From Candidatus Latescibacterota bacterium (GTDB lineage Bacteria; Latescibacterota; UBA2968; UBA8231): a stretch of DNA of 64,000 nt. A program made the position numbers and the translations under genes. The stretch lies in NCBI GenBank assembly GCA_965200315.1, contig OZ241362.1, forward strand, positions 64,001 to 128,000, read 5' to 3'. Positions 58,224 through 64,000 of the stretch are shown here, in pieces (positions within the stretch are counted from its first letter, which is position 1; each line of letters opens with the position of its first letter). Under the pieces are notes generated by a model that was given only the letters and a program-made list of their open reading frames with translations, ran no database searches and was not told the DNA's origin.

Positions 58224-59165
58224 ATGCTGGACGAACTGTGCAAAATCCGCTATGCCCGCTTCCGCTTGGAGATGACGGCGGTCGGGCGCTTGCGGTTGCC
58301 CCCATACAAGGGTTCGACCTTTCGGGGGGCCTTTGGCCATACCTTCAAGCGGCTGGTTTGCGTCAAGCGGGATCTGGACTGCGCGACCTGCCTGATCTGC
58401 GACCAGTGCGTGTATTACTACGTTTTTGAGACTCCGTTCAGTGGCGCGGGCGACCGCCGGGGATATGCTTTGGCACCGCATCCTTTTGTGATTGAACCGC
58501 CCGAGGAGACGCGGGAAATCTACGAGCCGGGGGCCGAGCTGCGGGTCGGCCTAGTCTTGGTGGGACGCGCCTTAGACTACCTGCCGTACTTTATCTACGC
58601 CTTTGAGGAAGTGGGACGCCGAGGGTTGGGAGCCGGGCGCGGCCAAGCTGCTTTGCAGCGGGTGGTGGCCCTTGGGCGTGAGCCTAGCGACGATAGGTGC
58701 ATCTATCAGGCGGGGGCAGGACAACTCGCGTCGGACTATCCGGTCGGCGTGGGTGCGCCCGACGTGGCGGTTGGAACGCGGCTGCGGCTGCGCTTGTGTA
58801 CGCCGGTCCGTCTCAAGGCCGAGGGGCACTATATTCGTCGGCTCGACTTTCCCCTGCTGGTGCGGGCCTTGTTGCGGCGCGTTTCGGATTTGGCCCGCTT
58901 CCACTGCGGGGCCGAATTGGACTTGGACTACCGGCAGTGGATTGAGTGCGCCGCCGAGGTGCAACAGGTGGCGGCTGGGGTGCGCTGGCACGACTGGGAG
59001 CGGTATTCACAGCGGCAGGAACAGAAAATGAAATTGGGCGGGCTGGTCGGCGATGTGGAGTTTGCTGGCAAGTGGGGTCCGTTTTTGCCGCTGTTGCGGC
59101 TGGGCGCACATTTGCACGTGGGCAAGGGCACGAGTTTTGGGTTGGGACGCTACGAAATTTTGTGA
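58224..59165 (+). CDS. cas6: CRISPR pre-crRNA processing endoribonuclease Cas6
   Basis: GSTFRGAFG, Cys cluster (C..C..C..C), PHPFV, RYSQRQ...GG and C-terminal HVGKGTSFGLG glycine-rich loop. Confidence 0.92.
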   Translation: MLDELCKIRYARFRLEMTAVGRLRLPPYKGSTFRGAFGHTFKRLVCVKRDLDCATCLICDQCVYYYVFETPFSGAGDRRGYALAPHPFVIEPPEETREIYEPGAELRVGLVLVGRALDYLPYFIYAFEEVGRRGLGAGRGQAALQRVVALGREPSDDRCIYQAGAGQLASDYPVGVGAPDVAVGTRLRLRLCTPVRLKAEGHYIRRLDFPLLVRALLRRVSDLARFHCGAELDLDYRQWIECAAEVQQVAAGVRWHDWERYSQRQEQKMKLGGLVGDVEFAGKWGPFLPLLRLGAHLHVGKGTSFGLGRYEIL

Positions 59166-59177
59166 AGGAGATGGTCT

Positions 59178-59714
59178 GTGGTATCCAAAGAAGCGTTAGT
59201 CATCGGTGCCTTGCTATACGATATAGGCAAGTTTGAATTCAGAACCGAGAATCGGCGGGAGCACCACACCACATACGGGGACTTTTTTGTCGATGAGTAT
59301 TTGCGTCGGTTCCGCTGTATGCAGCCGATTTTGGCAGATATCCGGCGGCTGGTCGCACACCACCACGAAAGGGAGTTGGGCGACCCCTTTCTGCGGCAAG
59401 CCGATCATCTGGCAGCAGCCGACCGGCAGGTGGATGGTAACCCCGAAACTTTGCGGGCACTGGTGAGTATTCTGGCCGCCGTGCAGATTGGCAAAGGCGA
59501 TCCGCCCCAGGAAAAGGACGTGCATCGGTACGTGCCGGGGCCGGTGGATTTTGCCGATCCTTTTCCCGAATGCGTACCGGGCGTCGCGGTTGCCGCATGG
59601 CAGCCCAACCGGGAACAGGTGCGGGACGAGCACACCCACGCTTGGGAGCAGTTTTGTGCTATGAAGGTCAGGAAGGTGGACGCCCAAGGCAAGATAACGC
59701 AGGTGGCTCCTTGA
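59178..59714 (+). pseudogene. cas10: Truncated Cas10/Csm1 (HD-domain stub) with an unrelated short tail
   Basis: GALLYDIGKF (normally LLHDIGK), H...G, HHH, ADHLAAADR and LVSI. Only 178 aa, with no Palm/GGDD. Confidence 0.75.
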
Positions 59715-59783
59715 GCGGCTATCATCACCATTGAACGCACCAAGCGCAGGGGTAAATTTTTCCACCTCAACGTAAGGAGATAC

Positions 59784-61529: not shown

Positions 61530-61652
61530 CAGTGTAGTTGATGTTGTGCTGGGGCAGAAGGAGCTTCCCGGCCGGTCTGATGCAGCGGCTGGGCCGTTGA
61601 GGCTTTTTGCTCTGGCGCATTGAGAGGGCACTTGGGACACAGAGGAGCGCAC

Positions 61653-63551
61653 ATGGACGCGCAGAAAACATTGCACGAGGCACGCCAGCACGTCGCCGCA
61701 GATGAATTCGACCGGGCCGAGAGCTTGTGCGCCGACATCTTGGTGGCCGACCCGGTTTGTGTGCCAGCGCATCAAGTGCTGGCCCGTGCTTGGCTGGGAC
61801 AGCGCGAACTCGACCGAGTGCGCGACCGCCTCGAGTACCGCAGTCAGTTGCCCCACGACGAACACTACGTCGAGTGGGGCCTGATCGCCGAGGAGCTGGA
61901 AGATCTGGAAAAGGCCAGCCAGATCTACGAAGAGCTTTTACAGCGCGAGCCGCAAAATCCCACCGCCCTGTACCACCTCGGGTTGCTCTGTTTAGAACGC
62001 GGCGAGCGGGACCGGGCGGTGGGCCTGTTGCAACGCACCCTGCGGGCGCAGCCAGAACGCGCGGCCGCTGCTTTTGAGCTGGCCCAGTGCTATGCTGAAG
62101 ACGAGTTGTGGGGGCTCGCGGCCGACGCGTACGAGCGCGGTTTAGGGCGCGACCCAGCCAATGAGGACGCCCGCATCGCCCTGAAGGTAGTGAAGGCCCG
62201 GATGCAGGAGTTGGCCCAGTTGCCCAAGAGCGAGACGCCGGTCGGCCATGGCCCGGCCCGGCGCATGCGGGTGTTGTTTGCCGGGCGGGAAAACGTCCAC
62301 GCCCGGCAGTGGATCGACGAAAACGGCCGGGTCGGCTACAGCCCGGTCCACGAGCCCCTTGCCGAGCCCCTGTTGGCCCTGCACTTGCAAGGATCGGCCA
62401 CTTTGGGCGCGTACCCGGTGCGGGCAGACCAGACCGTGCTGTTTGGGGCCGTTGACATAGACGTGCGGAAGAGTGCGCTCGCAAAGGGCGAGGAGGGCGA
62501 GCCGGTAGCAGCCCAACTGCAGGAGATCGTGCAAGCCGATGCCCGGCGGCTCGCCCGGCAGTTTGAGCAGTTGCACTTGCCGGTATATGCAGAAGACAGC
62601 GGCTACAAAGGCGTTCACTTGTGGCTCTTTCTGGCCGAGCCTGTGCCCGCCGCTGCGGTCAAGCGCTTTTTAGAAGCCATCGTCCAGCGGGTCGGCCCTC
62701 CCGCTCCCGAACTCCAGTGGGAGGTTTTTCCCAAGCAAGAACAGGTCACCGCCGATCAGCTCGGCAATCTGATCAAACTACCGCTGGGCATTCACCTGAA
62801 GACCGGACGCCGGTGTTTGTTCACAGACTTGGAAGGACGTATATACAGCGATCAAGAAGATTTTCTTGAGCGCGTCCAACAGGTTGAGCGCCAAGCCTTT
62901 GACCAAGCCGCGTCCCGCTTGGTAGCCCCGCCCGGCCCAGGCGGCGCAACCGGATCGGCTCAAGACCTGCGAGCCGCGTTCCCCGAATACGAGGCCCTCT
63001 TCAAGGGTTGCCCGGTCTTGATTGCCCTGATGGAAAAAGCCGTGAGTACGCACCACCTTACCCACGACGAGCGCTTGGTACTCAAGTGCTTCTTAGGGCA
63101 CTTGGGCGAGGGAGGCCGCCGGCTGATTCACGGCATTGTGGGGCATTGTCTCGATTACTCTGAATCCATTACCCAGCAGCAGATCGAGCGCACCCCGCCC
63201 TCGCCCATTAGCTGCCCCAAAATTCGGCAGCGTCTCCCGGATGTTACTTCCACGGTCAACTGCGCCTGTGTATTTGAGTTGCCCGCCGGAGGCTATCCTT
63301 CCCCGCTGTTGCATCTCGAACCGACCTTTACTGCGGGGCGATCCCACAAAGCCGAGCGCCACGAGGCCCTCGTCGACCAATACGTAAATTTGCGGCGAGA
63401 GCACCAGCGATTGAGCCGCGAGCTAGCAAAGGCGGAAGAGGACCTGCGCTACGCCTTGCATTCGTCGGAACAGGACGAGTTGCGGGCGGGCGGGTGGATT
63501 CTGCGCCGCGACGGGGACGATCGCCTGCGGGTGGAGGTCGACTTGGGATGA
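61653..63551 (+). CDS. CRISPR-associated primase-polymerase (CAPP; TPR-AEP-PriL-like CTD)
   Basis: N-terminal TPRs, AEP motifs DID, SGYKGVH and FPKQ...GNLIKLP, and a Cys-rich C-terminal domain (GCP, HCLDY, PISC, CAC). The stop overlaps the cas1 start (ATGA). Confidence 0.88.
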   Translation: MDAQKTLHEARQHVAADEFDRAESLCADILVADPVCVPAHQVLARAWLGQRELDRVRDRLEYRSQLPHDEHYVEWGLIAEELEDLEKASQIYEELLQREPQNPTALYHLGLLCLERGERDRAVGLLQRTLRAQPERAAAAFELAQCYAEDELWGLAADAYERGLGRDPANEDARIALKVVKARMQELAQLPKSETPVGHGPARRMRVLFAGRENVHARQWIDENGRVGYSPVHEPLAEPLLALHLQGSATLGAYPVRADQTVLFGAVDIDVRKSALAKGEEGEPVAAQLQEIVQADARRLARQFEQLHLPVYAEDSGYKGVHLWLFLAEPVPAAAVKRFLEAIVQRVGPPAPELQWEVFPKQEQVTADQLGNLIKLPLGIHLKTGRRCLFTDLEGRIYSDQEDFLERVQQVERQAFDQAASRLVAPPGPGGATGSAQDLRAAFPEYEALFKGCPVLIALMEKAVSTHHLTHDERLVLKCFLGHLGEGGRRLIHGIVGHCLDYSESITQQQIERTPPSPISCPKIRQRLPDVTSTVNCACVFELPAGGYPSPLLHLEPTFTAGRSHKAERHEALVDQYVNLRREHQRLSRELAKAEEDLRYALHSSEQDELRAGGWILRRDGDDRLRVEVDLG

Positions 63552-64000
63552 TTCTCTACGTGACCGATCAAGGGGCTGGCCTCTACCGCCGCGGGGAGCG
63601 CTTGCAGGTGCGGCGGCGCAAGGAAGTGTTGGCCGATGTGCCGCTCTACGAAGTGGAACAGGTCGTTTTTATGGGGCCAATCGCCCTTTCTACCCCAGCT
63701 ATGGGCGCCTTGCTCGAACGGGGCGTGGACACAGTCTTGCTGAGCACCCACGGCCAGTACCGGGGGCGGCTGGTCGGCCCGGCCCGGGGCAACGTGCTGC
63801 TGCGGCAAAAGCAGTTCAAGCGGTACGAGGACGAGGCGTTTCGTTTGGGCGTGGCCCGGGCAGTGGTGGAGGGCAAGTTGCGCAATATGCGGACGTTGCT
63901 CATGCGCTTGGCCCGGCGGCGCGGGCTGGAGGTAAAGGCCGTGGCCCACTTGCTGCGGCGATCGATTCAGCAGGCGCAGCAGGCCCCGCACGCCGAGGTG
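63548..64000 (+). CDS. cas1: CRISPR-associated endonuclease Cas1 (runs off the window end)
   Basis: Not in the ORF track. Translation from ATG 63548 gives MILYVTDQGAGLYRRGERLQV...VPLYEVEQVVFMGPIALSTPAMGALLERGV...GQYRGRL...LRQKQ...GKLRNMR. Confidence 0.92.
   Translation, partial: MILYVTDQGAGLYRRGERLQVRRRKEVLADVPLYEVEQVVFMGPIALSTPAMGALLERGVDTVLLSTHGQYRGRLVGPARGNVLLRQKQFKRYEDEAFRLGVARAVVEGKLRNMRTLLMRLARRRGLEVKAVAHLLRRSIQQAQQAPHAEV

Follow-up and report, generated by a model that had tools for sequence, protein, structure and literature searches.

A type III-A-derived CRISPR-Cas locus with a cas10-csm5 deletion scar and retained adaptation, processing and signalling genes in a Candidatus Latescibacterota bacterium

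The window analyzed here is a stretch of 64,000 nucleotides (nt; G000:C1:64001-128000) of a Candidatus Latescibacterota genome (GenBank assembly GCA_965200315.1, contig OZ241362.1), which is represented by a single 5.36-Mb contig. Its last part carries a type III-derived CRISPR-Cas locus that continues beyond the window. The initial annotation of this stretch had listed cas6, a cas10 stub of 178 amino acids (aa), csx1, the primase-polymerase gene CAPP and cas1, without a csm or cmr gene in between, and all of these genes were recovered at the positions given there, on the + strand. The gap between the stub and csx1 is 69 nt, leaving no room for a csm or cmr gene. Beyond position 64000, where the annotation had proposed to look further, cas1 was completed and was followed by a cas2-like open reading frame (ORF) and an array of 246 repeats. 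The features of the locus are as follows, in window positions unless marked as genome positions.

58224-59165, + strand: cas6, 313 aa, intact; PF10040 75.9 bits (cut-off 25), PADLOC Cas6 PDLC01477 364 bits over residues 7-312
59178-59660, + strand: cas10/csm1 remnant, codons 1-161, HD domain only, with the motif now YD; matches TIGR02578 positions 2-146 of 753 and the Pfam HD domain
59661-59714, + strand: csm5 tail, last 17 codons and stop, in frame with cas10 codon 161; matches the Csm5 of relative G019
59784-61529, + strand: csx1, CARF-HEPN-CARF ancillary ribonuclease, 581 aa, intact; PADLOC CARF2--CARF_HEPN_CARF 451 bits over residues 4-580, TIGR02221
61620-63551, + strand: CAPP, CRISPR-associated primase-polymerase of the TPR-AEP class A, 643 aa, intact; NF040561, PF22548, TPR
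63494-64000, + strand: 5' part of cas1, which ends at genome position 128546, 546 nt past the window; PF01867 123.5 bits for the part in the window
Genome 128548-128823, outside the window: cas2, a 91-aa cas2-like ORF sharing 83.5% identity with the ORF that follows cas1 in relative G022
Genome 129082-147678, outside the window: array 1, 246 repeats of 37 nt

The 178-aa ORF spans 59178-59714 as a whole and is composed of two unequal parts. Residues 1-161 align locally to residues 22-179 of the Cas10 of G019, a genome of the same genus, and residues 162-178, MKVRKVDAQGKITQVAP, followed by the stop codon, show 100% identity to residues 573-589 of the G019 Csm5, a 589-aa TIGR01899 match that sits directly upstream of the csx1 ortholog in that genome. 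Both the protein alignment and the DNA place the junction at 59660|59661, where it is clean and in frame. The ORF contains no stops, and the Cas10 Palm region, which carries the GGDD motif at residue 600 of the G019 ortholog, is not present. A single deletion of about 6 kb, which starts at cas10 codon 162, takes in csm2, csm3 and csm4 and ends near csm5 codon 572, very probably created this structure, and the resulting Cas10(HD)-Csm5(tail) fusion is most likely a non-functional scar. Comparison of the junction with the G019 sequences only gave an ATG/AGATG similarity of no more than 3-5 nt, and the observed junction was not exactly reproduced.

A homolog of the stub was found in five of the 30 other genus genomes (G001, G019, G022, G043 and G046), in which approximately residues 1-162 match, at 71-75% identity by tblastn (72-77% in the wider genome searches), the N-terminus of 778-799-aa Cas10 genes lying in open frames of 789-822 aa. 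All five carry a contiguous cas10-csm2-csm3-csm4-csm5 block. Upstream of it, G001 and G043 have the AAA-ATPase/PDDEXK gene and cas6 that form the left flank in the window; csx1 follows csm5 in G019 and G046, and CAPP-cas1-cas2-array follows csm5 in G022. The block of G019 consists of cas10 (TIGR02578, 562 bits), csm2, csm3, csm4 and csm5, and is followed by the csx1 ortholog (70.6% identity). Since the relatives jointly reproduce every flank of the window locus, the ancestral order was cas6-cas10-csm2-csm3-csm4-csm5-csx1-CAPP-cas1-cas2-array.

By orthology and synteny, the locus is the remnant of a standard type III-A operon, and by itself, without the Cas10 Palm domain and its GGDD motif and without the Csm2-Csm5 backbone, it is not a functional type III-A (Csm) system. 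The intact loci of G043, G001, G046, G019 and G022 contain the same cas6, Cas10 N-terminus, csx1, CAPP, cas1 and cas2 at about 69-86% aa identity (tblastn) and the same flanking AAA-ATPase/PDDEXK gene, and the 3' core of their array repeats is within 3 mismatches of that of the window locus, including the ATTGAAAC tag. Unlike them, the window locus is without Cas10 from residue 162 onward, Csm2, Csm3, Csm4 and Csm5 residues 1 to about 572, and its HD motif reads YD. The suggestion of a recently disabled type III-A system is thus borne out by the fusion and by relatives with a full cas10-csm2-5 block between the same flanks.

The prospect, also raised earlier, that a conserved version of the reduced layout would constitute a new arrangement was not supported, as the homologous stretch lies in long frames in all five genus matches and in nine of the ten class matches. 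In the survey of the class, 10 of 131 other genomes matched the stub (E <= 1e-15), nine of them within frames of 560-1492 aa, and the tenth match, a 172-aa frame in G088, is cut by the contig end at its start. No second short form of Cas10 was found in 40 relatives, in the 30 other genus genomes or in the 131 other class genomes (none in the nine resolvable class matches). A collection of 5.8 billion proteins yielded P0002-P0008, seven short homologs of 97-273 aa; some come from 14-28-kb contigs, and none of the seven carries the Csm5 tail. P0003-P0008 (97-238 aa, from ENA metagenome contigs) look degenerate; five of these lose Cas10 similarity at differing points in a frameshift-like manner, and P0007 (113 aa), which stops inside the conserved region, has the same HD-to-YD change. 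This hints at repeated erosion of the cas10 lineage or at indel errors in assembly, with no sign in these sequences of a selected short form. All components of the locus belong to described families, and it illustrates how modular CRISPR-Cas systems are and how they decay, without being a new arrangement.

The reality of the junction was assessed with contigs from sequencing runs, seven listed runs from two studies holding a 1.5-kb stretch across it; the contigs were placed on 57500-64000. A 2529-nt contig of run X3, which belongs to a study other than that of the probable source, covers 59139-61667 with 0 differences and bridges 59660|59661, as does a 3105-nt contig of the RNA-library run X1 (58587-61667, 2 differences), and both extend well over 31 nt on either side of the junction. 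As contigs from an independent study bridge the junction, the assembly error that had been named as capable of overturning the observation is excluded. In the probable source run X2, contig breaks occur at 59139-59168, 59339-59368 and 59645-59674, of which the last coincides with the deletion junction, and the contigs 59339-59674 and 59645-61667 end within 15 nt of it. A further X2 contig, with a depth of 44 versus 92-138 for the main form, runs from 59168 straight to 61638 and so leaves out the stub and csx1. Raw-read run X8, which has the same species label, has a depth of 0.1-0.6 over 59236-59669 versus about 1-10 in most other bins. The cas6-CAPP segment seems to be polymorphic, with several forms coexisting in the X2 sample. 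It would be conceivable that the real genome has a cas10-csm5 block that was collapsed out in assembly, given that the genome is a metagenome-derived single contig and that the X2 breaks near the junction and the alternative joint mean more than one form in the sample. We nevertheless regard this as extremely improbable, since the X3 and X1 contigs cross the junction, the fusion is clean and in frame, and no other Csm genes exist anywhere on the 5.36-Mb contig.

The stub itself shows limited signs of decay. Its HD motif reads ALLYDIGKFEF, compared with ALLHDIGKFEF in all five aligned orthologs, so that the catalytic His is lost to Tyr in the window copy alone. Counting sites at which all of the other five sequences agree, 6 substitutions are unique to the window copy, compared with 0-4 for each of the others; in the genus subset the values are 20 versus 3-10. 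The pairwise ratio of nonsynonymous to synonymous substitutions (NG86 dN/dS) of the stub is 0.15-0.19, which is not elevated compared with the 0.07-0.21 of intact orthologs. Relaxed selection on the stub was therefore rejected as evidence for decay, which consists of the H-to-Y change and the modest excess of unique substitutions. Because the ORF is still open and its dN/dS is not elevated, the deletion is recent relative to the divergence of the species (dS about 0.8-1.0).

The remaining genes of the locus, cas6, csx1, CAPP, cas1 and cas2, are all full length compared with their orthologs. The cas6 product has 80-81% full-length identity to the Cas6 encoded beside intact cas10 in G001 and G043, and its full-length profile match and the array adjoining the locus identify it as a predicted Cas6. 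The 581-aa ORF following the stub scored 78.9 bits with TIGR02221 (TM1812 CARF; cut-off 76.25), so its name csx1 is correct at the level of profile matches, with an additional predicted C-terminal CARF domain. Compared with the orthologs following csm5 in G019 and G046, its motifs DVTQG, LRNxLHHH and C-terminal NVTGGTT are invariant (3/3). The LRNxLHHH stretch, here LRNTLHHH, is a HEPN-like R-x4-H stretch, in line with the R-x4-6-H motif of HEPN domains. An N-terminal CARF domain together with a HEPN domain, both predicted, places the protein with Csx1/Csm6, and it resembles the CARF-HEPN ribonucleases of this group (CARF2 clade, PADLOC-DB) in its full-length CARF_HEPN_CARF match and in the conservation of the R-x4-H stretch and the CARF motifs. 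Among proteins with solved structures, its only sequence-level match was a weak one to a CARF domain (8y75, E 0.007).

CAPP scored 358 bits with NF040561, the NCBIfam profile made for this CAPP type (cut-off 200), and 146 bits with the AEP profile PF22548, has TPR at residues ~84-190, and shares 80% identity with the CAPP downstream of csm5 in G022. Its predicted TPR, AEP and C-terminal domains and its position beside cas1-cas2 assign it to class A, TPR type. CAPP-Cas1-Cas2 adaptation modules of type III systems have been described, e.g., in Marinitoga piezophila (MpCAPP; PMC8211822). The window CAPP is like MpCAPP, as presented in that source, in its TPR-AEP-C-terminal domain order (CAPP_A, TPR type), its location immediately upstream of cas1-cas2 and its proximity to an array; unlike the MpCAPP-type modules described there, it sits in an effector-less III-A-derived locus, and no Argonaute neighbor was seen. 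The full cas1 ORF comprises 350 aa, and the whole gene scored 336.6 bits in the genome search; with a full-length profile match (PF01867 / TIGR00287) its product is a predicted Cas1. Its true start is likely an ATG at 63545, which overlaps with the stop codon of CAPP; the cas1 orthologs align from residue 18 of the ORF.

The NG86 dN/dS values of the retained genes were 0.14-0.22 for cas6, 0.39-0.44 for csx1 (0.49 between two relatives with intact loci), 0.12-0.14 for CAPP, 0.10-0.12 for cas1 and 0.08 for cas2, and were no higher than those between relatives with intact loci.

Array 1, which exceeds all other arrays of the genome in size, contains 245 spacers, mostly of 36-41 nt, between 37-nt repeats ending in ATTGAAAC. 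Repeats 1-239 of the 246 are identical, and the seven variants, with one substitution each, are the seven farthest from cas2, which places the leader on the cas2 side. The repeat folds into just a weak 3' hairpin, and the first repeats of the array did not match any Rfam CRISPR-DR family. The array contains internal duplicates (spacers 67=68, 180=182 and 181=183) and an offset-overlapping triplet (27/50/51).

Three array-1 spacers (55, 100 and 209) match ordinary chromosomal genes perfectly. The matches lie at G000:C1:477096-477133, 4657264-4657299 and 213121-213157, with one target encoding a TIM-barrel enzyme, one an Fe-alcohol dehydrogenase and one a TonB-dependent receptor. All three are in sense orientation, i.e., a CRISPR RNA (crRNA) from any of them would agree in sense with the mRNA and would not pair with it, which is the pattern that selection by an RNA-guided effector would leave.

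No csm or cmr operon lies downstream of array 1, and genome-wide searches with Csm1, Cmr2 and RAMP (PF03787) profiles matched only the stub and two distant loci. Both of these are complete Cmr (III-B) modules, and both Cmr2 proteins have an intact GGDD motif, which answers the earlier call for a search for another GGDD-bearing cas10. The view that the Palm domain as the source of cyclic oligoadenylate (cOA) is missing thus stands for the locus, where Cas10 ends at residue 178, and fails for the genome as a whole. The two modules and the array of the former are as follows, in genome positions.

~582-602 kb: Cmr-A, with cmr2 (872 aa), cmr3, cmr4, a cmr6-cmr1 fusion, a Uma2-family gene, a CARF protein, cas1 and a 110-repeat array immediately followed by a Cas6 paralog
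592784-601241: array 2 of the Cmr-A locus, 110 repeats
~3.004-3.012 Mb: Cmr-B, with cmr1, a 612-aa cmr2, cmr3-6, csx16 and a 397-aa CARF-HEPN Csx1

The 776-aa protein of Cmr-A (L009 12885-15215) appears to be a fusion, with a Cmr6 match at residues 110-283 and a Cmr1 match at 308-493, and the Uma2-family gene inside this operon encodes an endonuclease. The Cas6 paralog of Cmr-A is only 34% identical to the window Cas6, over ~100 aa. The repeat of array 2 has the same 3' 23 nt as that of array 1 except at a single loop base, and both carry the same 8-nt tag. Overlaps of 19-29 nt, offset and always in the same orientation, link five array-1 spacers to spacers of array 2, and therefore the two arrays sampled the same targets.

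The 20 kb examined at Cmr-B contain neither an array nor cas6 or cas1, and the genome-wide array detection revealed no array near this module. Its Cmr2 starts at TIGR02577 position 2, and the first 150 residues gave no HD motif in a simple scan. An ortholog of Cmr-B occupies the same chromosomal site in G043, where the flanking genes are 81-93% identical, no array lies in the 32 kb examined, and the Cmr2 is 601 aa long; the same genome also carries an intact III-A locus with a full-length Cas10. In G042, the Cmr-B ortholog lies ~4 kb downstream of an array that starts at the contig end, and the 3' 23 nt of its repeat (CCCGATTTCTAGGGGATTGAAAC) are one base off the array 1 repeat and identical to that of array 2. 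The synteny with G043 without an array and the G042 array of the same repeat family together indicate that an array-less Cmr-B dependent on that repeat family predates the deletion.

Array-less or promiscuous III-B modules that use the crRNAs of other loci have been described in Marinomonas mediterranea, where a III-B system uses I-F crRNAs, and in Sulfolobus islandicus REY15A (PMC5576922). Cmr-B is similar to these cases, as far as they are set out in that source, in lacking its own array, cas6 and cas1 in a genome with several arrays that carry the same 8-nt tag, and the use of crRNAs in trans proposed below corresponds to the mechanism demonstrated there. Unlike the cases in PMC5576922, the donor here would be a type III-A locus without an effector and not a type I locus, and the proposed sharing is based on gene content and repeat similarity.

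Taken as a whole, the data are probably best explained by the recent loss of a redundant Csm effector, with the retained module of adaptation genes, Cas6, Csx1 and array working in trans with Cmr. As the Csm effector would have been redundant in this model, its loss was tolerated. CAPP-Cas1-Cas2 would still load spacers at the cas2-proximal leader, and Cas6 would cut the pre-crRNA into crRNAs with the 8-nt AUUGAAAC tag. These array-1 crRNAs would be loaded into both Cmr complexes (~0.58 Mb and ~3.01 Mb), and upon binding of the target RNA the GGDD Palm domains of Cmr2 would make cOA, which would activate Csx1 in trans. That the surviving module keeps working with the Cmr effectors, above all with Cmr-B, and that their cOA activates Csx1, appears to us on balance likely. 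The suggestion that the retained module might serve another effector or cOA source in trans has thereby become plausible through two complete GGDD-bearing Cmr modules, one of which (Cmr-B) is without array, cas6 and cas1, while the use in trans is itself something that we infer. As a more specific and tentative proposal, which we hold to be quite possible, the locus might represent a hand-over between effectors caught soon after the event, in which the CAPP-equipped III-A chassis now works only via Cmr complexes 0.46 and 2.9 Mb away and the Cmr2 of the ancestral, array-less and HD-less Cmr-B supplies the cOA for Csx1. The alternative joint 59168-61638 and the X2 contig breaks at the junction suggest that polymorphism of the cas6-CAPP segment may persist among the symbionts of this population.

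Several points weigh against this model of a module working in trans. Three of its steps, namely crRNA production from array 1, entry into Cmr and the response of Csx1 to the cOA of Cmr2, are ones that we infer. Cmr-A, with its own array, cas1 and distant Cas6 paralog, has no need of the window locus. The dN/dS values of the retained genes are averages over a long common history (dS 0.4-1.1) and give no specific information on constraint since the deletion, those of the stub are not elevated, and its excess of unique substitutions is modest and could reflect its phylogenetic position. The X1 contigs, which come from an RNA library, fit transcription without proving it, as such libraries can contain DNA. 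Three of three self-matching spacers in sense orientation have a chance probability of p = 0.125, and spacers 55, 100 and 209 may predate the deletion. Searches of public collections for protospacers gave 0 matches in viral contigs with two spacer cores common to both arrays (2 of 245 spacers) and in metagenome contigs with one core.

The locus might instead be a dead relic, in which the array, Cas6, Csx1 and CAPP-Cas1-Cas2 are all functionless and simply too young to have decayed, with Cmr using array 2 and the other arrays only. A deletion that looks recent, with an open stub ORF and unelevated dN/dS, would leave intact ORFs under neutrality as well; Cmr-A is equipped with its own array, cas1 and a Cas6 that is a distant paralog of the one in the window, and the other short, frameshift-like Cas10 N-terminal fragments in metagenomes suggest that the III-A lineage erodes often. 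We nevertheless consider this explanation rather unlikely, since Cmr-B needs a source of crRNA, its ortholog in G042 lies close to an array of the same repeat family, and array 1 is the largest of the genome, with 239 identical repeats and the same 8-nt tag as array 2.

Selection could also have acted on the deletion itself, if self-spacers in array 1 had made the III-A effector toxic and the Csm genes were lost as an escape from autoimmunity. Three perfect matches to ordinary chromosomal genes are in line with this, and the co-occurrence of cas gene loss and self-targeting spacers is a pattern described in PMC6990116. Yet the crRNAs of all three spacers are of the sense that would not pair with the mRNAs and should not trigger a type III response, and two Cmr effectors able to use the same crRNAs are still intact, which makes such an escape improbable. 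Even less credible is a functional minimal module, in which the 178-aa HD protein would be a selected stand-alone nuclease that, for example, supplies the HD domain in trans to the 612-aa Cmr2-B, and the reduced layout would be a designed one. The in-frame fusion without stops and the start of Cmr2-B at TIGR02577 position 2, with no HD in its first 150 residues, would be compatible with this; however, an in-frame junction has a 1-in-3 chance of arising, the short form is found in none of the nine resolvable class matches, the catalytic His is changed to Tyr in the window copy alone, and the HD-less Cmr2-B is ancestral, as its 601-aa G043 ortholog coexists with a full-length Cas10. On the last two points, a stand-alone HD protein complementing the HD-less Cmr2-B was rejected.

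With the deletion described, what looked like an odd type III locus lacking its interference complex becomes a dated and mechanistically clear event, consisting of one in-frame deletion with an exact scar. It offers a natural test case for the modularity of type III systems, i.e., for whether a module of adaptation, processing and signalling can outlive its own effector, and it raises the question of whether a CARF effector can be cross-activated by the Cas10 of another subtype.

Directly upstream of cas6, at 56636-58210 (+ strand), lies a 524-aa gene with AAA-ATPase_like (PF09820) and PDDEXK_9 (PF08011) domains, which is also present beside cas6 in G001 and G043 (82-87% identity). The genome contains seven full-length copies including that of the window, the other six being 72-83% identical, and one further partial match (61% identity over 135 aa). 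Reads over this gene had a far greater depth and many variants. It looks like a member of a multi-copy family that is possibly mobile.

The genome as a whole is very rich in CRISPR components, with four cas1 genes, three cas3-like genes and arrays at 0-822, 7731-8172, 129082-147678, 592784-601241, 3780241-3782178 and 4186938-4187998. The contig begins inside one array and ends in cas1, i.e., the assembly was cut within a CRISPR-Cas locus.

Among more distant relatives, L025 (G032) and L026 (G025), from another family of the same class, have CAPP and cas1 that are 77-82% identical to those of the window. They are about as close as those of G022 from the same genus (80-86%), although their Cas10 N-terminus is only 48-50% identical, which suggests that the CAPP-cas1 adaptation module may have been exchanged horizontally. 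In G019, a second type III-like module with a 532-aa Cas10/Cmr2-like protein and RAMP proteins follows directly after csx1 (L024 6662-9016). In G001, a 599-aa protein with CARF (Cas_NE0113), sigma-54 activator AAA+ and HTH domains (L022 1725-3524) is encoded, together with a DUF1232 gene, in an insertion between cas6 and cas10, and this protein is a candidate cOA-responsive transcription regulator.

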